Virus record (IMG/VR): IMGVR_UViG_3300032782_000004
Reading direction: 5' to 3' (one strand)
Source: a virus
Taxonomy: Duplodnaviria > Heunggongvirae > Uroviricota > Caudoviricetes
DNA: 64,000 nt
Made by a program: the position numbers and the translations under genes. The notes beneath the pieces are model-generated. The model saw only the letters and a program-made list of their open reading frames with translations. It searched no databases and had not been told where the DNA came from. Within the stretch, counting starts at the first letter, position 1, and each line of letters starts with the position of its first letter. Positions 12,322 to 43,758 of this stretch are shown in pieces.

Positions 12322-13503
12322 CTACTTGATGCTCGGATAAAGCAGATCGAGGAGCGTTGGAGCTCGAGCGAGTCCCGTTTGATCGGGCGCGCCGCTCATT
12401 CCGACGAAATCACCCTCGCCACGCTCTTTCGCTTCTTGTCCCGGCTCTACCCACCATTCGCGCGCGTGCGGCGGGACCCGCCCGATCGGCAGCTTCGTCG
12501 TGCCGTCCATTTTCACCCAGTCGCCGAGCTCGTCTTCGAAGGCGATGAACACGTGCGACGGCACGTCGTAGGGCTCGTGGTGACTGCTGCCGATGATCAT
12601 CGCGGCGATTCCGATCGACATCATCGCTGCGGCAAGTGTGATGGACATATCGTCGCAGTTGGAGACGGTTACGTCATGCTCTGGCAAATAGACGTAGCGA
12701 TCATCGGTCGAAATGTCCCAGCAAGAAACTCGTCCGACAGAACGTTCGATCGCCTTGACGGCGGCAGATGTGCCTAGCTTCTCTCGTTGCCCGATACGCC
12801 ACAGCGGAAACTTCCCCGCGCCGCCGTGCTCCATGCTAGTCGCTATGCGTTTTGGTTGAAGCAGGACATCGCCTTCACGAAGCTCCTCGACGAGAATTCG
12901 ATCGAAACTTTCTAGACGCTTGTACGCGGGTTGACATTGGACTTGATCGCAGCGGCCACCGTGCTTGCACTGGCCCACGTAGACCTTGTGGTTTTTCGTC
13001 AAATAGACGGTCGAACCGGTAGTGAGGTCGATCGCATCTACGTCAAGTTTACCCTTCGCCCATTTTTGCGTGATGGTCGACCATCGGTCTTTACCCCAGA
13101 TGCGTTCGCCTACTTTGATTTTCTCGATCGGAACGAATTCGAAGTCATCTCGAAGTAAAAGCGTCCTTTCCGGAAAACAGTCGCCGCCGATGATGCAAAG
13201 TCCACCCTCGTCGAGGCACAACGTCTGTTCGGGCGTTGCCATGAACTCGCCCATCATCGGATCGGCGATGTACGGCACTTTCTGCCTGAACGCGTCGAGT
13301 ATGGCTTGCGCTTTCTCGCGGTGCCCTTTCCGCGAAGCGCCGGCCTTGTCGAGGACCTGCGTCACCCAAGCACGGAGTCGCGGGCTCATGCGCCCCTTGA
13401 ACGCGCGCTCGGCGACTTCCTTCAAAGACAGCTTCGCGCCTTTGCCTCCAGCCGGATGCGGACGAGTATCGGTGCGTACGTTCTCTACGGGTTTGTCGAT
13501 CAT
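12322..13503 (-). CDS. transglutaminase-like cysteine peptidase interrupted by a mini-intein (Hint domain)
   Basis: ATG at 13501-13503 overlaps (ATGA) the stop of the 13500..14597 gene. After excising residues 103-282 the product reads ...EGGL-CDDMSITLAAAMMSIGI, i.e. a G-x-C-x-D-x-S TGase catalytic motif. Downstream HVFIAFE...GDWVKMD matches the His/Asp motifs. The listed 737-aa ORF upstream of 13503 is an out-of-frame artefact. Confidence 0.55.
   Translation of the reverse strand: MIDKPVENVRTDTRPHPAGGKGAKLSLKEVAERAFKGRMSPRLRAWVTQVLDKAGASRKGHREKAQAILDAFRQKVPYIADPMMGEFMATPEQTLCLDEGGLCIIGGDCFPERTLLLRDDFEFVPIEKIKVGERIWGKDRWSTITQKWAKGKLDVDAIDLTTGSTVYLTKNHKVYVGQCKHGGRCDQVQCQPAYKRLESFDRILVEELREGDVLLQPKRIATSMEHGGAGKFPLWRIGQREKLGTSAAVKAIERSVGRVSCWDISTDDRYVYLPEHDVTVSNCDDMSITLAAAMMSIGIAAMIIGSSHHEPYDVPSHVFIAFEDELGDWVKMDGTTKLPIGRVPPHAREWWVEPGQEAKERGEGDFVGMSGAPDQTGLARAPTLLDLLYPSIK
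12658..13197 (-). other. mini-intein (Hint domain, no endonuclease) inserted at the catalytic Cys of the TGase-like peptidase
   Basis: Begins Cys (CIIGGDCFPERTLL). Contains a TxxH-like block (VYLTKNHKVYV). Ends ...VYLPEHDVTVSN followed by +1 Cys. About 180 aa. Confidence 0.45.
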
Positions 13504-14597
13504 CGTCGTTTTCGTTTTCGCTTGCGTGTAGCGAGATAGACGACGCCGCCGAGTGCGCCGGCTCCAATCAATCCGATGCTCGCCACCGCGGCGGTGCTGA
13601 GTTCCGTTTTTTGCGGCGGCTTCACGGCTACGAGGGGCGGGGGCGCTTGAGGGGGCAGTGCGTTCGGCAGCGTTGACGGTAGCGGCGCATGCGTCGCGCA
13701 CGCGGCGGGCGCGGGCGCTCCGAGCACCTTCGTGAGCGCGGTTGCCGTCGCCTGCTCGTAATTGCCGGTATCGACGGGGACAGCGGGGGTTTGCGACGAA
13801 TTCCACGCCGTCTTGAACGCGTGCACGGTCGTGTTGACGAGTGTTCCTGATTGCGCGACCGATTGGCAGTAGTTCGGATCGGCGCCAATGGCGCTGGCCG
13901 CCGCTTGCGCGGTAGTCGAGATGTTCCACGGGAACGTGTCGGTGCTCGCCGGGAGCGGCTGTTCGCCCGCGTCGCCGTAGAACGCTTGAAGCGCGACGCG
14001 CGCGCTCGCGATCGCGGACGACAGCGAATTTTGCACATCGAGGCGCGCTTGAGTCACCGCCGTCTGATCGCCGGCTGTGATCGCCGCGATCAAATCGGTG
14101 TTGCGCTTGAGAGCCGTTGCGGTGCGATTTTGCACGTCTTCCGCGCTCGCCGTCGCGACGGTGTTGGATCCGCTGGCGGCTTCCTTGACGGAGGCGTCGA
14201 TGGTCGTGACGGTGTCCGGCACCGCCGCCGCAAACGATTGATCGTCCATGGACGAAAGCGTCCCGACCAGCATCGTCGATTGATCGAGCGTCGCGTAGTC
14301 GCCGAGGATCCCCGCTGCCGCGGCGCCGAGCATCGACGGCGTCACGCCGTCGGCGTATGGAAGTGCTACGAAATACGCTTTGGGGCGCATGTCGAGGCTG
14401 CCATCGAACCACTTCGACGGCAGATTCAGCGTCTCGCCGGCGACGAGCGACTTGAAAGAAGCAAAACCGTTCGGATAGACGACCGATCCCTTGTGCGGAT
14501 TCGCGTGCACCAGATCGATGGCGCACTTCGGGCATCCGGCAAATTCGATTGCGATCTTTGCCGGGCTGTCGCCGGGCCGAACGACGTACGATCTCAT
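13500..14597 (-). CDS. LysM-like N-terminal domain protein with C-terminal TM anchor and KRKRKRR tail
   Basis: N-terminus YVVRPGDSPAKIAIEF...DLVHANP...LVAGETLNLP is LysM-like. C-terminus IGLIGAGALGGVVYLATRKRKRKRR. Paralogous architecture to 4693..5832. Confidence 0.5.
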   Translation of the reverse strand: MRSYVVRPGDSPAKIAIEFAGCPKCAIDLVHANPHKGSVVYPNGFASFKSLVAGETLNLPSKWFDGSLDMRPKAYFVALPYADGVTPSMLGAAAAGILGDYATLDQSTMLVGTLSSMDDQSFAAAVPDTVTTIDASVKEAASGSNTVATASAEDVQNRTATALKRNTDLIAAITAGDQTAVTQARLDVQNSLSSAIASARVALQAFYGDAGEQPLPASTDTFPWNISTTAQAAASAIGADPNYCQSVAQSGTLVNTTVHAFKTAWNSSQTPAVPVDTGNYEQATATALTKVLGAPAPAACATHAPLPSTLPNALPPQAPPPLVAVKPPQKTELSTAAVASIGLIGAGALGGVVYLATRKRKRKRR

Positions 14598-35227: not shown

Positions 35228-36549
<1,322 letters not shown>

Positions 36550-36550
<1 letters not shown>

Positions 36551-37088: not shown

Positions 37089-38558
37089 ATGGCAAAACGG
37101 TACATTGGAGATGCGATCATCACGATCGAGTACGTCGACGGCAACGAGTATCGCGGCACGATCCGCGTCAGCGGCCACACTTGGAGGTTCTCGGATCTTC
37201 ACGCCCCAACCGCCGGATTCAACTTCGCGTACGACTCGCCTCGCGCGTACGACGAGATGGCCCAAAGCGCCGTGTCGTTCGGATCGTACTACGCGACCGG
37301 CAACCGCGGAGACGACGCGCCGGATTGGGCGCCATCGGCGGAAACCGCCGACGCTATCGCCGAAGCGACAGAGTGGGCGATGAACGATAGAGGCGAGTAC
37401 GAAGTACGACGAAGCGCGGAAGGATCAGCGCGGGAGGCGGAGCATCGCGTCGCCGATTTCAACACTCTCGACGATCTCATCGAGCACGCGCGCAAGGAAG
37501 GCGCGACGCACGTCTACAAGGGGCACAAGAGTTGGGGTGATCCGAACGAGGCTTACCTCTACTTCCCTCGCGGAGACGGCTCCTACGAGGAGGCAGGCGT
37601 CTACAACGAGCGAGGGTATTTTCACGTCCCCGCTCAAACGTCTCGAGGGACAGTGCCGCAACTGCCGCGCAACGCTTATCCGATCAAGAATCCGCGGTGG
37701 GAACAAAGATCAGTGGATCTGAGCGAATCTCGTGAAACCGCTTCCAACGCAACGCGGTTCAAGCATCTACTACACGGCACTAGATTCAAGTTCGTAGATC
37801 CGACGAATCAAGATCATCCCGGTTTCGGTCGTGAGGACTGGACGTGGGTGAAAACGGGCCACAACACGTACCGCAGCCCGCTGTCCCCGCCGGGGCGCAA
37901 GTACGAACACCGCACGGACGTCAACGTGCTGGTCGTGCCCGAGCACGAGGAGACCCACGAGGCGCACGATTTGAGCGAACGCAGACGCAGCGACAACTAC
38001 GTTCGACTCTACAAGGTGATCGCACAGGGAAACGTCATGACGCATTTGGGGCGCCAGACGTTCTCGAAAACACAGGCCGAAGATCTCGCAAACGACTTGA
38101 GACGACGAGGTTACGGCGACGTCCGTATCGAACGCTGGGGACCGAAAAACCTATCCGAATCTTCTGTCGTCCGCGACTACATTGCCGTCGACCGCAACGA
38201 CCGCAAGGTCGCCGGCCCCTTCCGAACCCGTCACGAGGCCGATCGGCATGTGCCCGAAGGCGGGTACGTGAAGTTCACCTCGTCGCAATTCCGGCGGCCG
38301 CCGCCGGCGCCCTCATCGTATCCGATGTTCCGCGAAGGCTCTAAACGAGGTTTCAGACCCGGAGCGCGTGTTCGCGTTACGGATAACGACTCGATGTACC
38401 GCGGCTGGACCGGAACCGTAGTCTCGCCTGACGTGAACCGTACAGCGCATCTCGGCAATCACGAACGTGCTCTTCTCCAGCACGGCGCCGTACTCGTAGA
38501 GACCGGCGGCGGGAAGTTGTTCGTTGTCTACCCGCACGCCCTCGTGCGCAAAGCATGA
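37089..38558 (+). CDS. hypothetical protein
   Basis: 489-aa ORF with globular composition (Y/W/H-rich). No motif recognised. Confidence 0.45.
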   Translation: MAKRYIGDAIITIEYVDGNEYRGTIRVSGHTWRFSDLHAPTAGFNFAYDSPRAYDEMAQSAVSFGSYYATGNRGDDAPDWAPSAETADAIAEATEWAMNDRGEYEVRRSAEGSAREAEHRVADFNTLDDLIEHARKEGATHVYKGHKSWGDPNEAYLYFPRGDGSYEEAGVYNERGYFHVPAQTSRGTVPQLPRNAYPIKNPRWEQRSVDLSESRETASNATRFKHLLHGTRFKFVDPTNQDHPGFGREDWTWVKTGHNTYRSPLSPPGRKYEHRTDVNVLVVPEHEETHEAHDLSERRRSDNYVRLYKVIAQGNVMTHLGRQTFSKTQAEDLANDLRRRGYGDVRIERWGPKNLSESSVVRDYIAVDRNDRKVAGPFRTRHEADRHVPEGGYVKFTSSQFRRPPPAPSSYPMFREGSKRGFRPGARVRVTDNDSMYRGWTGTVVSPDVNRTAHLGNHERALLQHGAVLVETGGGKLFVVYPHALVRKA

Positions 38559-38595
38559 GAAAGAGTTGCGCCAAGAGGGCGAGAATGACGAGTGA

Positions 38596-38836
38596 TCAAT
38601 CGTCGTCCTTCGACCGCTTTTTCGCCGTTGGTGTTCCCGGGCTCGTCGGTAACTCCTCATCGAACTCGCGAATTACCGCCGCCGCCATTTCGGGGGCGCG
38701 ATCGAGCGGCACGCGCCAGTATCGTTCGAAGATCAAACGCAAACAGCCGCACCGTCGACACCAGACCGCTTGGCCCATCATCGCGTGCCAGTAGCTTCCG
38801 CCGCAGGCGCATGTCTCACTGAGCGGAACGTTGGCC
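38596..38836 (-). CDS. small zinc-ribbon protein
   Basis: Internal start MANVPLSETCACGG...CRRCGC. Convergent with the upstream plus-strand gene. Confidence 0.35.
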
Positions 38837-38882
38837 ATTTTCAGGGTTGTCTCGAGTCCTCGAGCCGAGGTAATCCCGCGAG

Positions 38883-39425
38883 ATGCACGCGCTAGCACTC
38901 TACCTCTCGATGGTTCTCGCCTCCATTGCGCCCCACGTCGAACAGGGTCGCAGGGAAGCGATTGCGCAGGACGTCGCCGCCGCGACGCTATCGGAAACGC
39001 GAGCGTTCGAGGATGACGCGAACGGCCAAAAAACGGCGCTTCTCCTCCTTTCGATCGCGCATTACGAGACCGGAAAGTCATGGGCGTCCTGGATCGACGA
39101 CGGCCGGTGCAATGACCCCGCATGGCGCGCACGACACGCCGCCTGGCTTCGGGGCGGCGATTGCGACGGCGGGCACGCTTACTCAATGTGGCAGGTTCAT
39201 GTGCCACGAGCGCTCGGTCGGGCTCTGAGCGCCGATCGACAGGAAGCGGCGCGCACCGCCCTCCGCTACGCGCGCGCGAGTCTCAAGCTCGGCGTCGGGC
39301 TCTGCGCGTACTCGGGGGAGCACTATCCGCATTGCCGGCTGGCCGCCAGGCGCCTCGAGACAGCACACGCGTGGGCGCTACAATTCCCGTATCCGAGTGA
39401 AAATCGATCACAGGCGTCGCGCTGA
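38883..39425 (+). CDS. putative lysozyme-like/lytic transglycosylase-like protein
   Basis: HYETGKSW...GHAYSMWQV resembles the E...G-L-M-Q core of SLT/lysozyme-like domains. Weak. Confidence 0.3.
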   Translation: MHALALYLSMVLASIAPHVEQGRREAIAQDVAAATLSETRAFEDDANGQKTALLLLSIAHYETGKSWASWIDDGRCNDPAWRARHAAWLRGGDCDGGHAYSMWQVHVPRALGRALSADRQEAARTALRYARASLKLGVGLCAYSGEHYPHCRLAARRLETAHAWALQFPYPSENRSQASR

Positions 39426-39591
39426 GAAGCTCCCGCAGATCGCTCAACTCAGGCGAGAGGTCGCCGCGTTGAGAGACGAGATCGCCGAGATCAAACGCAT
39501 GCTCTCCGGCTTTCAGACGGACGTCTTGAACGGCCTAGCGCGTGAGATCAACCGGCGCCCCTCGTCGATCCCGCCGCCGAAAAAATCCTGA
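39397..39591 (+). CDS. small coiled-coil protein
   Basis: 64 aa. Confidence 0.25.
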   Translation: MKIDHRRRAEKLPQIAQLRREVAALRDEIAEIKRMLSGFQTDVLNGLAREINRRPSSIPPPKKS

Positions 39592-39802
39592 TTGCGGTCG
39601 TCATGGAGGCTTGACGATCGACATCCATCTACGACCGCGACGTGCTCGCAGTTCTGACAATTCGACCGCTGCTTGACGGTCCTTCATCCATCGCAACGCC
39701 TGTTAGAAACGATTTGGTCTTCCGACTGATAATCGTCGTCTGTCACGGCACTTCTTGCAGGCCACCCGACGAGGAGATTCACGTCGCCTTTCGCCGCCTC
39801 GG

Positions 39803-40344
39803 CTGATGATCGTCATCCGTCACGGCGTCTTCTACGAGAAAAGCCCCACCGACGTCTTCGCCTCCGAGGGGGTTTGACGATCGCCATCCGTCACAGCGTC
39901 TCCCGCGAGTCGTGAATTCGGCGAGATGGGCGGCGTCAAACGTGGTCTGACGATCGCCATCCGTCACAGCGTCTCCCGCGAGCGCGGGAACGCCGCCGTA
40001 TTCGGCCCCGCACAGGATCTGACGATCGCCATCCGTCACAGCGTCTCCCGCGAGCACGCAAGCGAAAACGAAAACGACGATGATCGACACTGACGATCGC
40101 CATCCGTCACAGCGTCTCCCGCGAGGTTGCGAATCTCCATTGAGATTGTTGGAGATGGAGCTACTGACGATCGCCATCCGTCACAGCGTCTCCCGCGAGT
40201 CGGGGGGCTTGCGGCGCGAGGAGGACCCGTCCTTCGCTGACGATCGCCATCCGTCACAGCGTCTCCCGCGAGCGCGGGAACGCCGCCGTATTCGGCCCCG
40301 CACAGGATCTGACGATCGCCATCCGTCACAGCGTCTCCCGCGAG
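39803..40344. CRISPR. CRISPR array: eight 36-bp repeats (first degenerate) with seven 35-38-bp spacers. Further decayed repeat remnants at 39726-39761 and ~39611-39650.
   Basis: Repeat CTGACGATCGCCATCCGTCACAGCGTCTCCCGCGAG at 39874, 39947, 40019, 40090, 40164, 40237 and 40309; degenerate copy at 39803. Spacers at 39839-39873, 39910-39946, 39983-40018, 40055-40089, 40126-40163, 40200-40236 and 40273-40308. Repeat decay toward low coordinates implies the leader lies on the cas-gene side, so transcription is probably on the minus strand. Confidence 0.85.
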
Positions 40345-42203
40345 GCGTCGTGTAGAAAGCCGCTGACTTCGACCTCTTGCACGTCGCTTTGCGAGCGGTT
40401 CCCCTCATCGGCTAGGGAACGAGCCGTATCTCCACGGAATTGCGGGGAACCGTTCTTTGCGGCACCGAGCCGCTCGATCTCTGAGACAGGCGTCGTGATG
40501 GATGAAGATCGGCCACGCTGAACGTGGCGCTCCGGGGGATCCCCGGTTGCCGGACCGATACGGGGCCGTGAGGGAGAGTTGCCTCGCCCTCCGTGCCGTC
40601 CGTTTGTCACGGCCGTTGTCCCCCTTTCGGGGGGTTTCGAACCCGCGCTCCGCGGGCCCGCTTCGCCGGTATCGCTACCGGAAGAGTATTGTAAAAGGTT
40701 TGCCGCGGCGTTGTCGTCACGGTCGTCGATGTGCTCGCAAGAAGGGCACTGGAAATTCGGATATCCAGGCGAAGTCTCGCGCACGGTTAGGCACAACGCG
40801 CAGCGCTTTGTTACCGGCTCGTCTTGAGGCGCTTCCTCGAGACGGCCGCCGATCCATTTCATCTTATAAGCCACACGACGGCGAACATCGCCCATACGCG
40901 CGGCGTGGACCATCGGCGCCAAGCGATTGCGCGTTTGGGCGTCGTTCGTGAGGTTGCGCGAGAGCATAGAATGCACCGAACCGGCTGGGCGCATGCGTAC
41001 GATTTCGACGCCGGTGTCGACAATCTGCCGAACGCTCTTGCCTACGATGTCGTCTCGAAGATCGGTGATCCGCGCGTGATAGTGCGCAACGCGCCGCTTG
41101 GCTTCGAAAAAACCGGCGCTCTGGGCACGCGTCGCAATGCCCGCTCGATAGCGTCGCGCCATCCGACGCTCCCACAGCTTTCGGAGACGCTCGAACCGCG
41201 CGATGCGATCGTCGTCGCGGAGGCCAAGATGGCGGATGTTCGTCGAGCGTTCGCCTTGCGTCGCGACGGATAGGTTCACGACGCCGACCTCGACTCCAGC
41301 CACTCGGCCTTTCACGCGCGGTACCGGACGATCTCGCAGAGCGCGACCGGGCCCTCGTGCTTGCGGCGTCGGATCGGGTACTTCCGCTCGTAGCGCGATG
41401 TACCAGCGGCCGTCTCTCTCTGAGAGACCGAGAGCGATCGCTTTGCCGCCGTAGGGAAAGTGATGCGATTTCTCTTGCGTGACGGGCAAGTAATCACGCT
41501 CTTTCAAGACAACTTCGCCGATCCCCGGGATCGTCACGGTCCGTGACGTGATGCGGATCGGGTTCGGCTGGTCAACGTGGTAAGCCGCGTGTCGCCGGCC
41601 GCGAAAACGGGGGCGTCCCGCGCGCTCGTACCGCCCGGCTTTGATATGTTCGAAGAAATGCTTCCAGCCGTCCTCGACGTCGATAACGGCTTCGCGAATC
41701 GCGAACGAGGAGAGCTCGGTGAGCCAGCCGAACCGCTCCGGCTGTTCGTCGCGTACGAAGGCGACCTGGGAATACCAGTCGATCGACGTGGCGGCAAAAT
41801 CCGGGATCGCAGCGCCGGATGCGGGCCGGTAACGCACACGCTTTTGCGGCGTCCAGGCGACCGACGCGTGTTGACCAAAAAGCGCCAAAAGCCCGACGAC
41901 GACGGCGGCGCCGAGAGTCACCTGCGGCGCATCCTGCTCGATACGAGGCGTACGGACGTCGACCGGCGCGCCACGAGTGAGCGCAGCCAAAGCGTAGCCG
42001 AGCATGCACGCCGCTTCGCCGCCGGCGCAGTCATGTCCGGCGAGAGCGCGCGCGCCGCGCGCAATGCCGCGAGCGGCGTCGAGCTCGATCCAACGCTCGA
42101 GTACCCAGTTGTGCGCGACGCGAGCGCCAGCGACGTGTTTCGCGAGCGCACGCCGCTGTTCAGCGGTCGGATCAATCTCGGTCTTGTACGCGCGAAGGAT
42201 CAT
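40326..42203 (-). CDS. TnpB/Cas12-like RuvC-domain RNA-guided effector (compact type V CRISPR effector candidate)
   Basis: N-terminus MILRAYKTEIDPTAEQRRALAKHVAGARVAHNWVLERW is typical of OrfB_IS605/TnpB. RuvC-I-like GVEVGVVNLSVAT (Glu in place of Asp), RuvC-II-like TGVEIVRM, zinc finger CALC...CPSC, RuvC-III DDRDDNAAANL. ~130-aa low-complexity C-terminal tail. The ORF terminates inside the leader-proximal CRISPR repeat. Confidence 0.7.
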   Translation of the reverse strand: MILRAYKTEIDPTAEQRRALAKHVAGARVAHNWVLERWIELDAARGIARGARALAGHDCAGGEAACMLGYALAALTRGAPVDVRTPRIEQDAPQVTLGAAVVVGLLALFGQHASVAWTPQKRVRYRPASGAAIPDFAATSIDWYSQVAFVRDEQPERFGWLTELSSFAIREAVIDVEDGWKHFFEHIKAGRYERAGRPRFRGRRHAAYHVDQPNPIRITSRTVTIPGIGEVVLKERDYLPVTQEKSHHFPYGGKAIALGLSERDGRWYIALRAEVPDPTPQARGPGRALRDRPVPRVKGRVAGVEVGVVNLSVATQGERSTNIRHLGLRDDDRIARFERLRKLWERRMARRYRAGIATRAQSAGFFEAKRRVAHYHARITDLRDDIVGKSVRQIVDTGVEIVRMRPAGSVHSMLSRNLTNDAQTRNRLAPMVHAARMGDVRRRVAYKMKWIGGRLEEAPQDEPVTKRCALCLTVRETSPGYPNFQCPSCEHIDDRDDNAAANLLQYSSGSDTGEAGPRSAGSKPPERGTTAVTNGRHGGRGNSPSRPRIGPATGDPPERHVQRGRSSSITTPVSEIERLGAAKNGSPQFRGDTARSLADEGNRSQSDVQEVEVSGFLHDASRETL

Positions 42204-42457
42204 TTTACGGCTCGAATGTTACGGCAGTCGGGGCACTCGTTTGGGACGGTAAGTAAGACCATCCTATTTCGATGCGGGAGAACTTCGACAGTCGGATTAA
42301 CCAGATCGTCTTGAAGCACAAATTCGGCATTGCAATCGACGCAAATGATCTTGATCTTGAAGTTCAGCCGAGCCGTTTTCGGGTTCCCGCGTGTCACTTT
42401 GAATCTTCGTTCGGCTCGAACTTGCCGTTTCGAAATCGTCCAGTCTGAACCCCCCAC
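42200..42457 (-). CDS. small zinc-ribbon protein, translationally coupled upstream of the Cas12-like gene
   Basis: 85 aa. CVDCNAEF...CPDC. Its stop overlaps the start of the Cas12-like ORF (4-nt overlap). Confidence 0.4.
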   Translation of the reverse strand: MGGSDWTISKRQVRAERRFKVTRGNPKTARLNFKIKIICVDCNAEFVLQDDLVNPTVEVLPHRNRMVLLTVPNECPDCRNIRAVK

Positions 42458-42569
42458 ACGTCCTCGCGTGCTTTTCGCCGAGCGGCCATTTCCTCGGTAA
42501 GCCGTCGAAGCCGCGTACGGAACACTTCATGCTCCTCGTGTTGGATCTCGAGCCGCGTCCGTCGTACGG

Positions 42570-42848
42570 TCATCCGTCGCCCTTTTCCATGATGAGTGTT
42601 TGGCACAACTGTCCGAGAGCGTCGGCGAGTGAGTCGCCGAGATGTGTCCTGTGCCCTCGTGTTACGGCCCATTCGTCGTTTTTCTGCCGACTGATCGTGA
42701 CACGCTCTTGAAGATTGAGATTTGCCTCGAGCGTACCGATGATGTCGAGCGCCTGCTTTGCACGCACGACAGCTTGACGTTCTGCATCGCCCAATTGGCG
42801 AAAACGAAGCATGTAGTCGAACACGTCGCTTGCTTGTTCCGAGGTCAT
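42570..42848 (-). CDS. hypothetical protein
   Basis: 92-aa ORF with ordinary composition. The overlapping 255-aa ORF 42394..43161 looks like Arg-rich junk. Confidence 0.3.
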   Translation of the reverse strand: MTSEQASDVFDYMLRFRQLGDAERQAVVRAKQALDIIGTLEANLNLQERVTISRQKNDEWAVTRGHRTHLGDSLADALGQLCQTLIMEKGDG

Positions 42849-43314
42849 CGCCGCATTCTCTCCGCTTCACGCGATCCCATCTTACGTCCGCGCCCCCGCG
42901 ATCCAGATCCAGAAGCGAGCGACACGATGCGCCCAAAGAATGTGCCGACGTACTATCCGGATGTTTTCGAGAGCGATGGCCGCCTCCGCGAAGAGGCCTA
43001 GCATGTCCCATTCGAAGTAGAGCGCAATCCAGTCGATGCGCTCGCGATCGAGGCAAAGGACAGCGTCGATGGCCCGGTCGCGTTGGGAGGCGAGAAGCGC
43101 GATCATGGCTGCTTTCGCGCCTTTCGAAACGGACTATCGCTGGTAGCGAACTCGAGCGCATCGAGCGCCGTCCCGCAAGTTCGATCGAATCCGAGATGAC
43201 GGATTGGCGCCCATGCGTCTGCCACGGAGCACGCCAAGATTTCTAGATCGCGCGCTTTGGCACAGATGTCACATTGGATAGGCACGCCACTGAAGTGCGT
43301 ACAGTTCGCTTTGT

Positions 43315-43758
43315 TCATCGTCGTCCCCCTTCGAGCGCGAGACGAACACCTGTTGCAACAGCATTGATGAACACGAGGTACGCCAAGGCTGCGATCGCGA
43401 GCCATGACGTGTGCGAGTAGAGCAAAACCCCCTCGAGGAGCACCGTGAATCCGAGCGCCTTCGACATCGATCCGAATGCGATTTCGGTCCAACGCACTAC
43501 GGTGGTCGCGCTGAAAAGCAAGCCGCCGGCGACGAGCGCCCAGATCAGATAGCCGCGGGCAAGCTCGTGGTGCGCGAGCCAGTAGGTCGCGACGGGGACC
43601 CCGCCGCCGAGAGCGGCGCCGAGGACGGCCGCCGCGCGGTTTCGCGGGTGAAGCGCGAGTCGAACCTCGCCGAGCACGCCCAAGCGCTTCGGTTGACGTG
43701 CCGGAGACGGCGAGACAACTCGAAGGTTCGAGCTCGACTTGCGCGCAGCGGCGGTCAT
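43315..43758 (-). CDS. multi-pass membrane protein
   Basis: Internal start MTAAARKSS. Three or four hydrophobic helices (AAVLGAALGGGVPVATYWL, LIWALVAGGLLF, LAIAALAYLVFINAVATGV). The upstream part of the listed ORF is Arg-rich junk. Confidence 0.35.
   Translation of the reverse strand: MTAAARKSSSNLRVVSPSPARQPKRLGVLGEVRLALHPRNRAAAVLGAALGGGVPVATYWLAHHELARGYLIWALVAGGLLFSATTVVRWTEIAFGSMSKALGFTVLLEGVLLYSHTSWLAIAALAYLVFINAVATGVRLALEGGRR

Follow-up and report, generated by a model that had tools for sequence, protein, structure and literature searches.

The arrangements closest to the one reported here are those of Cas12n and TnpB, in which a tracrRNA or omega-RNA overlaps the open reading frame (ORF) of the effector and the C-terminus of the protein is disordered. 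Cas12n carries its tracrRNA within the effector mRNA, where it overlaps the ORF, and has a disordered segment at its C-terminus (PMC12216341, PMC11641405). TranC, as summarised in PMC13565253, has an omega-RNA functionally split into tracrRNA and crRNA, together with a CRISPR array. Rare TnpB-derived, array-linked clades, V-U6 to V-U45, are described by Altae-Tran et al. (2023, PMC10691335) as mostly metagenomic, with the array always downstream; V-U24, V-U43 and V-U44 are listed there with non-canonical RuvC sites. Finally, Cas12m, Cas12k, Cas12c and TldR are nuclease-deficient RNA-guided binders whose RuvC sites are altered and which act by binding.

Here we describe a related locus in a 64,000-nucleotide stretch of phage DNA (the window). 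Positions 40345-40694 of the minus strand are, in our estimate with a probability of about 0.8, a structured scaffold gene of about 350 nt, tracrRNA- or omega-RNA-like, that is wholly contained in the 3' part of the effector ORF and forms a split guide with the adjoining array, serving an effector that appears to be non-cutting. The lineage is rare and carried by phage; its RuvC site is altered, and one of its spacers matches its own genome perfectly.

The effector ORF occupies 40326-42203 on the minus strand and encodes 625 amino acids. Its parts are as follows.

40695-42203, minus strand: effector core, aa 1-503, with TnpB-like WED, REC and RuvC regions and a CxxC...CxxC zinc finger (Pfam, NCBIfam, AF2, Foldseek)
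41289-41291, minus strand: codon of Glu305, at the RuvC-I position (canonically Asp; HMM alignments)
40986-40994, minus strand: codons of Met404-Arg405-Pro406, at the RuvC-II position (alignments to ISFba1 TnpB, RdCas12n and P0039-P0041)
40716-40718, minus strand: codon of Asp496, the RuvC-III residue, which is retained (ISDra2 D361 of DRDxNAA aligns here)
40326-40694, minus strand: ORF tail of 122 codons, aa 504-625, translated, without protein-level constraint (pLDDT, GC1/2/3, substitutions, frameshift)

The core has the fold of TnpB and matches its HMM. It carries the Pfam domains HTH_OrfB_IS605 (PF12323) and Cas12f1-like_TNB (PF07282), and it scores 121 bits against the NCBIfam model guided_TnpB (NF040570), whose cut-off is 100; scores against the IS607_TnpB and IS200_TnpB models fall far under their cut-offs. 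AF2 models the core at a pLDDT of about 80-95, and the top Foldseek matches are ISFba1 TnpB, ISDra2 TnpB and Cas12f; 8iaz, matched at 4e-20, speaks for the TnpB fold. The best Cas model in PADLOC is Cas12u4 (3e-39, 133 bits), with a Cas12f model at 131 bits. A profile of the family aligns with RdCas12n over its full length (E 5e-26), and by score the family is nearer TnpB: 125-148 bits against ISDra2- and ISFba1-type TnpB versus 95 bits against RdCas12n. Similarity to LaTranC (PDB 9JFQ) is weak (1e-12) and covers the C-terminal third only. A relative with the canonical D/E/D residues, P0039, is ISDra2-like (2e-64). The locus has the type V layout, a single TnpB-derived RuvC effector with a CRISPR array downstream. 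A Cas12m identity has been reported for a 610-aa myxophage protein (10.64898/2026.09.14.751636); a Cas12m (V-M) identity is not supported for this effector: Cas12m entries in the PDB match the family over the zinc-finger region only (4e-6 and 2e-3), PADLOC gives no Cas12u1 match, and an anti-repeat is present. Searches of genome contigs for relatives returned only distant TnpBs at 23-32% identity and three short partial matches (36-67 aa at 38-48% identity). For the genes neighbouring the effector, PHROGs and Pfam were uninformative, and the more distant relatives L031, L032 and L041 yielded no array information.

Two positions of the RuvC site depart from the canonical pattern. In HMM alignments, ISDra2 TnpB D191 and RdCas12n D287 both fall on Glu305 of the GVEVG motif, so the Glu at RuvC-I that the original prediction had picked out survives the alignment that might have placed an Asp there. 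Among 30 relatives this position is Glu in 23 and Asp in 7. The other two residues had been misplaced: the RuvC-III Asp is D496, the equivalent of ISDra2 D361, rather than D494, and E400 is not the RuvC-II residue. Alignments to ISFba1 TnpB, RdCas12n and the canonical relatives P0039-P0041 put Arg405 on the position of the catalytic Glu, and this Arg is invariant in all 30 relatives. As aligned, then, the site reads Glu305 / Arg405 (no Glu) / Asp496, without the canonical D-E-D, and the Arg is a larger anomaly than Glu305. The canonical triad is also missing from accepted type V members, namely Cas12k and some Cas12m.

Is this a site in decay? Acidic residues at RuvC-I and RuvC-III are kept in all 30 relatives compared, and they change together: Asp at RuvC-I goes with Glu at RuvC-III in 7/7 cases, and Glu at RuvC-I with Asp at RuvC-III in 21/23. 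The residue after the Arg is Glu in 17 of the 30 (Pro406 in the window protein). From the D/E swap, the conserved acids and the adjacent Glu, the site looks like a maintained one rather than a decaying one. As far as we found, no site that combines a correlated D/E swap with an invariant Arg where RuvC-II should have Glu has been characterised.

The ORF runs into a CRISPR array, one spacer of which matches the window itself.

39803-40344, minus strand: CRISPR array of eight 36-nt repeats and seven spacers (35-38 nt)
40309-40344, minus strand: CRISPR repeat 1, carrying the stop codon of the ORF (TGA, 40326-40328)
40055-40089, minus strand: spacer 4, self-targeting, matching window positions 13494-13528 at 35/35 nt (100%)
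13494-13528, plus strand: protospacer of spacer 4, with the 5' flank GTT (ACGGGTT)

The array adjoins the ORF in the window and in 11 distinct related loci with enough downstream DNA. The repeats degenerate at the low-coordinate end, with remnants past the array to about 39605, and new spacers are ORF-proximal in close relatives; both place the leader on the side that adjoins the ORF. Spacer 4 bears out the self-targeting guide that had been suspected earlier. Its protospacer spans the stop codon of one ORF (13500-14597, minus strand) and the ATG (13503) of another, a Hint/transglutaminase-like ORF (12322-13503, minus strand); the target is a gene junction, not a mapped promoter. From this single protospacer the PAM would be GTT; Cas12k and Cas12p have PAMs of this 5' GTT type (10.1101/2025.01.20.633832). 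For the other spacers of any locus, comparison with the locus DNA gave no match beyond shared or duplicated spacers, with one weak exception, a spacer of L060 against L023 (25 nt, 92% identity, E = 0.001, at the E-value cut-off). For 20-mers of spacers 1 and 3, IMG/VR held no exact match.

Taken from the residues at the active site, the effector probably binds target DNA without cutting double-stranded DNA, and this would explain why a spacer that matches the phage's own genome perfectly is tolerated. It is possible instead, though we find it doubtful, that the RuvC site is rearranged yet catalytic, cutting or nicking DNA or processing its own pre-crRNA or tracrRNA, and that the self-spacer is tolerated for another reason, such as the lack of a valid PAM. 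The acids of RuvC-I and RuvC-III that are never lost and co-vary between Asp and Glu would suit a catalytic site, as would an Arg405 invariant over a wide clade that includes P0028-P0038 and the acidic residue that follows it in most relatives; rearranged, probably active RuvC-II sites are also documented among TnpBs (PMC10691335). However, a cationic Arg in place of Glu, with Pro as its neighbour in the window protein, leaves no evident RuvC-II carboxylate, and the 35/35 self-match is flanked by just the GTT type of PAM.

The DNA between the core and repeat 1 holds the scaffold, whose elements we list in the order of transcription.

40512-40694, minus strand: 5' domain of the scaffold RNA (RNAalifold and pair counts, 13 loci)
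40666-40681, 40638-40660 and 40620-40632, minus strand: 5'-domain hairpins P1, P2/3 and P4
40560-40603, 40529-40550 and 40512-40528, minus strand: 5'-domain hairpins P5, P6 and P7
40482-40516, minus strand: anti-repeat of about 35 nt, complementary to CRISPR-repeat positions 7-36 (duplex energy, inverted repeat, covariation)
40392-40476, minus strand: 3' domain, 85 nt, three hairpins
40456-40472, 40429-40448 and 40397-40421, minus strand: hairpins of the 3' domain
40345-40391, minus strand: linker/leader from scaffold to repeat 1, starting with the conserved motif CTCGCAAA.CGA...GCAA (invariant columns, alignment A2)

An overlap between the 3' end of the gene and a structured, omega-RNA-like scaffold had been proposed from the window alone; covariation over 13 loci now argues for it. 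Pair counts and covariation were taken from alignment A2, which comprises these 13 loci. In helices 1-7, 84-95% of cells are paired and most pairs show compensatory changes. Over 82 base pairs, 90% of cells are paired, versus 35-44% when the partners are slid; 54 of the 82 have changes on both sides, and the covariation score is 0.46 versus 0.08-0.13. The 3' domain is closed by an invariant pair, CGAG (40473-40476) with CUCG (40392-40395). Both hairpins pointed out earlier are there: cggttcccc/ggggaaccg has its arms at 40393-40407 and 40441-40455, and gttccc-loop-gggaac is the hairpin at 40397-40421. Most of the 13 loci retain the latter, with differing stem sequences and a conserved loop, AGCCGACGA; in L056, L057 and L058 it folds weakly or otherwise. 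A long-range helix suggested by RNAalifold (18-21/202-205) was replaced by the local hairpin P1, which co-varies. The scaffold is also recovered by nhmmer in L066 despite a stop-broken ORF there. Folding of single sequences gives a z-score of -4.1 for the tail and -2.9 for a core-CDS control; these values fail to separate the two, and the evidence is therefore the covariation. A search of 38000-43500 against Rfam returned no match at E <= 1.

The anti-repeat ties this RNA to the array. Its duplex with the repeat has a predicted energy of -30.9 kcal/mol, it makes up an inverted repeat together with a degenerate copy of the repeat, and 17 of the 18 anti-repeat:repeat pairs co-vary across the 13 loci. 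Relative to repeat 1, the best repeat-complementary segment lies at -165 to -130 nt in 8 of 12 loci, and the anti-repeat of each locus fits that locus's own repeat. Such complementarity, encoded near the effector, is one mark of a tracrRNA; the other would be a stable RNA that pairs with pre-crRNA and is bound by the effector. The repeat-like fragment noticed earlier around 40590-40625 proved to be a chance resemblance specific to the window, the true anti-repeat being at 40482-40516; the fragment at 40601-40613 is not conserved in relatives. Similarly, a site at -434 to -390 given by RNAduplex on the window alone is due to chance, and the homologous site came from an inverted-repeat scan and the alignment.

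Could the DNA between the core and repeat 1 encode no scaffold RNA but be a CRISPR leader or promoter to which factors of adaptation or transcription bind? The DNA does occupy the leader position, with new spacers ORF-proximal in close relatives. It holds invariant motifs (CGAG, GATACGGC, AGCCGACGA and CCGCTCGCAAAC in alignment A2), and a promoter-like site is seen at 40717-40688, though it is not conserved in relatives. A leader, however, predicts neither 54 compensatory pairs nor an anti-repeat that co-varies with the repeat, and no cas1, cas2 or cas4 Pfam family is recorded within about 5 kb at the 12 loci looked up. We consider this explanation improbable for the region as a whole; it could hold for the last 50-130 nt or so only. 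The 3' domain and linker could serve partly as leader DNA instead of mature RNA.

If these nucleotides are a scaffold gene, what is the protein tail that they also encode? The tail begins after the RuvC-III helix. The low-complexity tail of some 130 aa described earlier is indeed rich in Ser, Gly, Arg and Pro (47.5%, versus 30% in the core) and predicted to be disordered (AF2 pLDDT <30), but its length is 122 codons. Its codons are not conserved as protein. For codon positions 1, 2 and 3, entropy is near-equal in the tail (1.02/1.04/1.13), as it is not in the core (0.69/0.62/1.37); GC1/2/3 is flat, and the GC3 bias is gone. In the close pair L022/L055, 44 of the 53 differences in the core fall at third positions, and the 8 differences in the tail are spread 4/2/2 by codon position; divergence is about 1% in the scaffold versus 9% at core third positions. 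Some 63 codons of the window tail are read in a different frame from homologues, and the tails of the window, L028 and L023 contain compensated frameshifts. In P0016, P0020 and P0022 the tail is missing or interrupted. The 122-residue tail is an in-frame read-out of the RNA gene, and its amino-acid sequence is without selection.

The open frame itself is another matter. The original prediction rightly placed the stop inside repeat 1, but took it to be there by chance. Wherever a related locus extends far enough downstream (13 of 13), an in-frame TGA in the first repeat ends the ORF, and the codon phase from the linker (40345-40391) into the repeat is the same in 13/13. Stop codons are rare at 64% G+C, and shuffled tails give a probability of no stop of about 0.01-0.1 per locus (0.26 for the short tail of L064), so that in any single locus chance read-through of G+C-rich DNA might seem to account for the long extension. 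Across 15 loci, however, the tails have 0 stops in frame 0 versus 30 and 53 in the other two frames. These 83 triplets occupy 41 separate columns of the alignment, of which 26 are lineage-specific; frame 0 is open in 15/15 loci, and the stop is in repeat 1 every time. The stop counts per frame refute chance read-through, to which we now assign next to no weight. The open frame ending at the repeat-1 TGA is under selection. Since selection keeps the frame open, translation of the tail matters in some way beyond an account in terms of RNA only.

One way in which it might matter is that the tail is a functional disordered domain, for example an aid in binding RNA or DNA, whose presence and composition are selected while the RNA structure is secondary. 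The frame is open in all close relatives, with stops avoided only in frame 0; the codon phase into the repeat is conserved; and the frameshift in the window is compensated, restoring the C-terminal frame. Against this, the tail shows no third-position excess of substitutions and no codon bias, about 63 of its codons in the window are in another frame, and three relatives have it absent or interrupted. Compensatory pair changes and an anti-repeat that tracks the repeat mark the RNA as the constrained entity. A disordered-domain role is compatible with that of the RNA but no substitute for it, and we regard it as rather unlikely to be what selection maintains.

A more specific proposal is that the selected trait is translation through the whole scaffold to the repeat-1 stop, which would control guide-RNA biogenesis or transcription of the array, in a phage-borne effector whose RuvC (Glu/Asp - Arg - Asp/Glu) has been remodelled to a functional, non-cutting site used to regulate the phage's own and competitors' genes. 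Ribosomes might prevent the scaffold from folding within the mRNA, or they might shield the transcript while RNA polymerase is still on its way to the array. We offer this proposal speculatively and think it unlikely to be correct in full.

For the scaffold-gene reading, the following sequence of events seems plausible. The effector mRNA, the scaffold and the array would be one transcription unit on the minus strand. Within it, six or seven 5' hairpins would be followed by the anti-repeat of about 35 nt, the 85-nt 3' domain, the linker/leader and repeat 1. The protein would bind the scaffold and the repeat:anti-repeat duplex, and the 35-38-nt spacers would serve as guides, as in Cas12n and TnpB. 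On bound target DNA, the effector may then act as a roadblock or regulator. Because the spacer matches the phage's own genome perfectly, a regulatory role is directly testable.

The locus is instructive because about 370 nt double as an open reading frame and a structured guide-RNA gene, which allows selection on the open frame, on the amino acids and on the base pairs to be cleanly separated. It extends the series of transitions from TnpB to Cas12 (omega-RNA to tracrRNA plus crRNA) by a phage lineage whose scaffold is still in the ORF. With a core of about 500 aa, the effector is compact and may be naturally non-cutting. There is also a practical lesson: gene callers report this effector as a 625-aa 'transposase', and tracrRNA finders that look only in intergenic DNA will miss the scaffold.

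How does the locus compare with known systems? The original prediction likened it to the TnpB omega-RNA arrangement and to Cas12f tracrRNA placement; the first likeness holds, but the closest published precedent is Cas12n, not Cas12f. Cas12n (type V-N, formerly V-U4; RdCas12n PDB 9J09) is likewise a small TnpB-like effector with the array downstream, and here too the scaffold and anti-repeat are inside the ORF and the tail has a pLDDT <30. Cas12n has D287/E386/D484, cuts dsDNA and uses a 5'-AAN PAM; here the residues are E/R/D and the sole protospacer has 5'-GTT. The tail of RdCas12n is about 32 aa, whereas the tail here is 122 aa and spans the whole scaffold to the repeat-1 stop, and the effector family described here is phage-borne.

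The TnpBs of IS200/IS605 elements (ISDra2, ISFba1) share the fold and give the best sequence and structure matches; the guide scaffold of their omega-RNA, or reRNA, overlaps the ORF at its 3' end, and their C-terminal residues are disordered. They differ in having an intact D-E-D, one guide fused to the scaffold at the transposon end and no CRISPR array. At this locus an anti-repeat and a repeat make up a split guide, with 8 repeats and 7 or more spacers, and no TnpA, serine recombinase or transposase Pfam family is recorded among the neighbours at the 12 loci looked up. TranC (Jin et al. 2025, Cell; summarised in PMC13565253) is alike in architecture only: a TnpB-lineage effector, a split omega-RNA and a CRISPR array. 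TranCs are described as active nucleases, and the similarity of LaTranC to this family is weak, as given above.

The nuclease-deficient binders act by transcription block or transposon targeting, modes that are compatible with self-targeting, as here. TldR is phage-encoded as well (PMC10705468; PMC11013384), but it has a single guide and no array; this locus has an array, two conserved RuvC acids and a target at a gene junction. Cas12m and Cas12c use crRNA only and are unrelated in sequence beyond the zinc finger (4e-6), and Cas12k is Tn7-linked. None of Cas12m, Cas12k, Cas12c and TldR has been described with an Arg at the position of the RuvC-II Glu and a D/E swap. By their published description (PMC10691335), V-U6 to V-U45 resemble this lineage in being rare, TnpB-derived and array-linked, some of them with an altered RuvC.

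The TnpB/Cas12-like effector gene is joined directly at its 3' end by a CRISPR array on the same strand:

40326-42203, minus strand: effector ORF, 625 aa, carrying Pfam HTH_OrfB_IS605 and Cas12f1-like_TNB and passing NCBIfam 'guided_TnpB'
40344 down to 39803, minus strand: CRISPR array, 8 repeats of 36 nt with spacers of 35-38 nt
40326-40328, minus strand: ORF stop codon (TGA), within CRISPR repeat 1
40482-40516, minus strand: anti-repeat, -30.9 kcal/mol with repeat positions 7-36

The repeat is CTCGCGGGAGACGCTGTGACGGATGGCGATCGTCAG, and degenerate remnants of it reach down to ~39605.

Judged from sequence, the tail of the effector (residues 504-625) is not conserved as protein. Ser, Gly, Arg and Pro make up 47.5% of it, AlphaFold2 pLDDT is below 30 and no secondary structure is predicted. 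Across 13 loci, GC at the three codon positions is ~0.70/0.50/0.61-0.86 in the core (0.94 in the more distant locus L064) and flat, ~0.65/0.60/0.64, in the tail; column entropy is 0.69/0.62/1.37 and 1.02/1.04/1.13, respectively. In the close pair L022/L055, 44 of 53 core differences fall at third positions, and the 8 tail differences are spread 4/2/2. The scaffold, the predicted structured guide-RNA region within the ORF 3' end, has diverged by ~1% in this pair versus 9% at core third positions; therefore all tail codon positions are more constrained than core synonymous sites. Relative to most relatives, the window is out of frame for some 63 codons. The shift comes from one additional base pair (2 nt) in a stem, and 7 nt inserted past the anti-repeat bring the window back into frame. 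Frame shifts also occur in this region of L028 and L023.

Comparative evidence indicates instead that the tail region is conserved as RNA. For 13 loci, we aligned the nucleotides from the RuvC-III helix through repeat 1; the alignment has 461 columns and a mean identity of 61%. The consensus fold has compensatory changes in 50 of 75 predicted pairs. The curated structure has 82 pairs, with 90% of cells paired; shifting the 3' partners by 1-3 columns lowers this to 35-44%. Changes on both sides occur in 54 pairs, and the covariation score is 0.46 versus 0.08-0.13. None of 500 shuffles matches this structure in pairing, two-sided changes or covariation. In 8 of 12 loci, the segment most complementary to the repeat is found 165-130 nt 5' of repeat 1 and covers the whole repeat; 17 of the 18 pairs in the anti-repeat:repeat duplex co-vary across loci. 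Most of the 13 loci have the gttccc-loop-gggaac hairpin of the original prediction (40397-40421), with stem sequences that differ and a conserved loop, AGCCGACGA; L056, L057 and L058 fold weakly or differently here. The scaffold is detectable in L066 although stops interrupt the ORF there. A second, partial copy lies 3' of the array in L059 (8105-8323; nhmmer 141 bits, model positions 3-223), with no effector gene. In the window, a promoter-like ACGACA-18-TACAAT (40688-40717, minus strand) sits within the RuvC-III coding sequence and ends a few bases ahead of P1, a hairpin of the scaffold 5' domain; it is not kept in relatives.

Why, then, does the open frame run through this region? The ORF had been thought to stop by chance in the first repeat. 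That is wrong, because, wherever a related locus includes downstream DNA, its ORF ends at a TGA within repeat 1, codon phase is the same in all loci from the scaffold 3' domain into the repeat, and frame 0 avoids stops: the tail region of 15 loci holds 0 stops in frame 0, 30 in frame +1 and 53 in frame +2. Stop triplets in frames +1 and +2 fall in 41 distinct alignment columns, of which 26 are each specific to one lineage, so they arise often in these frames. On a conservative count, the probability of no frame-0 stop column is (2/3)^26, or ~3e-5. The open frame to repeat 1 is therefore under selection. Translation into the repeat could reflect a disordered tail selected for composition only, a requirement for ribosome transit, or a C-terminus kept fixed as spacers are gained. 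Elsewhere in the window, ORF 35228-36550 (plus strand) ends in 13 Asp codons (36500-36550), with a poly-Thr run in the overlapping frame.

The catalytic residues were assigned by profile alignments to solved structures (ISDra2 TnpB, RdCas12n), ISFba1 TnpB and canonical relatives. The predicted Glu at RuvC-I is borne out: Glu305 aligns with ISDra2 TnpB D191 and RdCas12n D287. The other two assignments shift. The RuvC-II Glu, placed earlier at E400, falls on Arg405 by the ISFba1, RdCas12n and canonical-relative alignments (IAIENL / IGIEDL in canonical relatives versus VVMREP / IVRMRP), with one alignment setting it one residue before that. At RuvC-III, ISDra2 D361 corresponds to the second Asp of DRDDNAA, D496, and not to D494. 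Arg405 is invariant (30/30 relatives); the residue after it is Glu in 17 of them, Gly in 9 others and Pro in the window protein. It is flanked by a correlated swap between positions 305 and 496: Asp at RuvC-I goes with Glu at RuvC-III in 7/7 cases and Glu with Asp in 21/23, E...E occurring only in L023 and P0016. The site is thus remodelled and maintained rather than simply decayed. Wider relatives (P0028-P0038) carry E/R/E, and the closest relatives with a canonical D/E/D site (P0039-P0041) are ISDra2-like TnpBs.

Spacer 4 (40055-40089) matches window positions 13494-13528 at 35/35 positions, with a 5' flank of GTT. This protospacer contains both the stop codon of ORF 13500-14597 and the start codon (ATG) of ORF 12322-13503 (both minus strand), the latter Hint/transglutaminase-like. 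The spacer has the plus-strand sequence and is thus complementary to the coding strand and mRNA. The remodelled RuvC site and the tolerated perfect self-match are best explained if the effector binds DNA without cleaving dsDNA.

Arrays acquire or swap spacers at the end facing the ORF, since close relatives differ in ORF-proximal spacers and have distal ones in common. This holds for the window (39803-40344) and L025 (7860-8315), whose phages are nearly identical (21 of 1896 nt differ) and whose effectors share 99% identity, and likewise for L022 and L055. This turnover occurs despite no cas1, cas2 or cas4 family being recorded within ~5 kb in any of the 12 loci looked up. A 108-nt repeat-spacer-repeat block is present in two exact copies in the window (39947-40054 and 40237-40344), making spacers 1 and 5 identical; one spacer is present three times in L060 (7042-7221). 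Both suggest recombination within arrays.

The family is rare: 5.8 billion protein clusters contain ~26 homologues with 40-57% identity, and a set of 1.84 billion contains only 20 representatives at E <= 1e-30. Members lie on 85-140-kb phage-like contigs, two of them from IMG/VR, near genes such as those for DNA polymerase A, DnaB, Thy1, SNF2 helicase, endolysin and HNH proteins. Bacterial and archaeal genomes gave only distant TnpBs besides three short partial matches. The homologue P0016 (L065 5001-6473; 58% identity, E/R/E site), on a 115-kb phage-like contig, is a 'solo' effector, since it has no tail, scaffold RNA or array and the next gene overlaps its stop codon.

Cas12n also has a tracrRNA embedded in its ORF and a disordered C-terminus, both echoing TnpB (PMC12216341, PMC11641405), and the effector resembles it in both respects. 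Membership in Cas12n is nevertheless not established, because Cas12u4 and Cas12f models score similarly, TnpBs score above RdCas12n, the triad is altered, and the PAM-side flank is GTT (a single protospacer) rather than AAN. TranC is defined by an omega-RNA split into tracrRNA and crRNA (as summarised in PMC13565253). In the canonical relatives P0039 and P0040 the tails are also long and contain the same motifs (..LGSSNR.., ..SSQS..), which suggests that the scaffold was embedded in the ORF before the active site changed. Non-cutting derivatives of Cas12 and TnpB are already known (Cas12m, Cas12k, Cas12c, TldR). The scaffold-in-ORF feature is real, and three things are new: how far the overlap reaches (scaffold and leader entirely in frame, stop in repeat 1, open frame under selection); the Glu/Asp-Arg-Asp/Glu pattern at the RuvC site; and the phage setting combined with a self-target.
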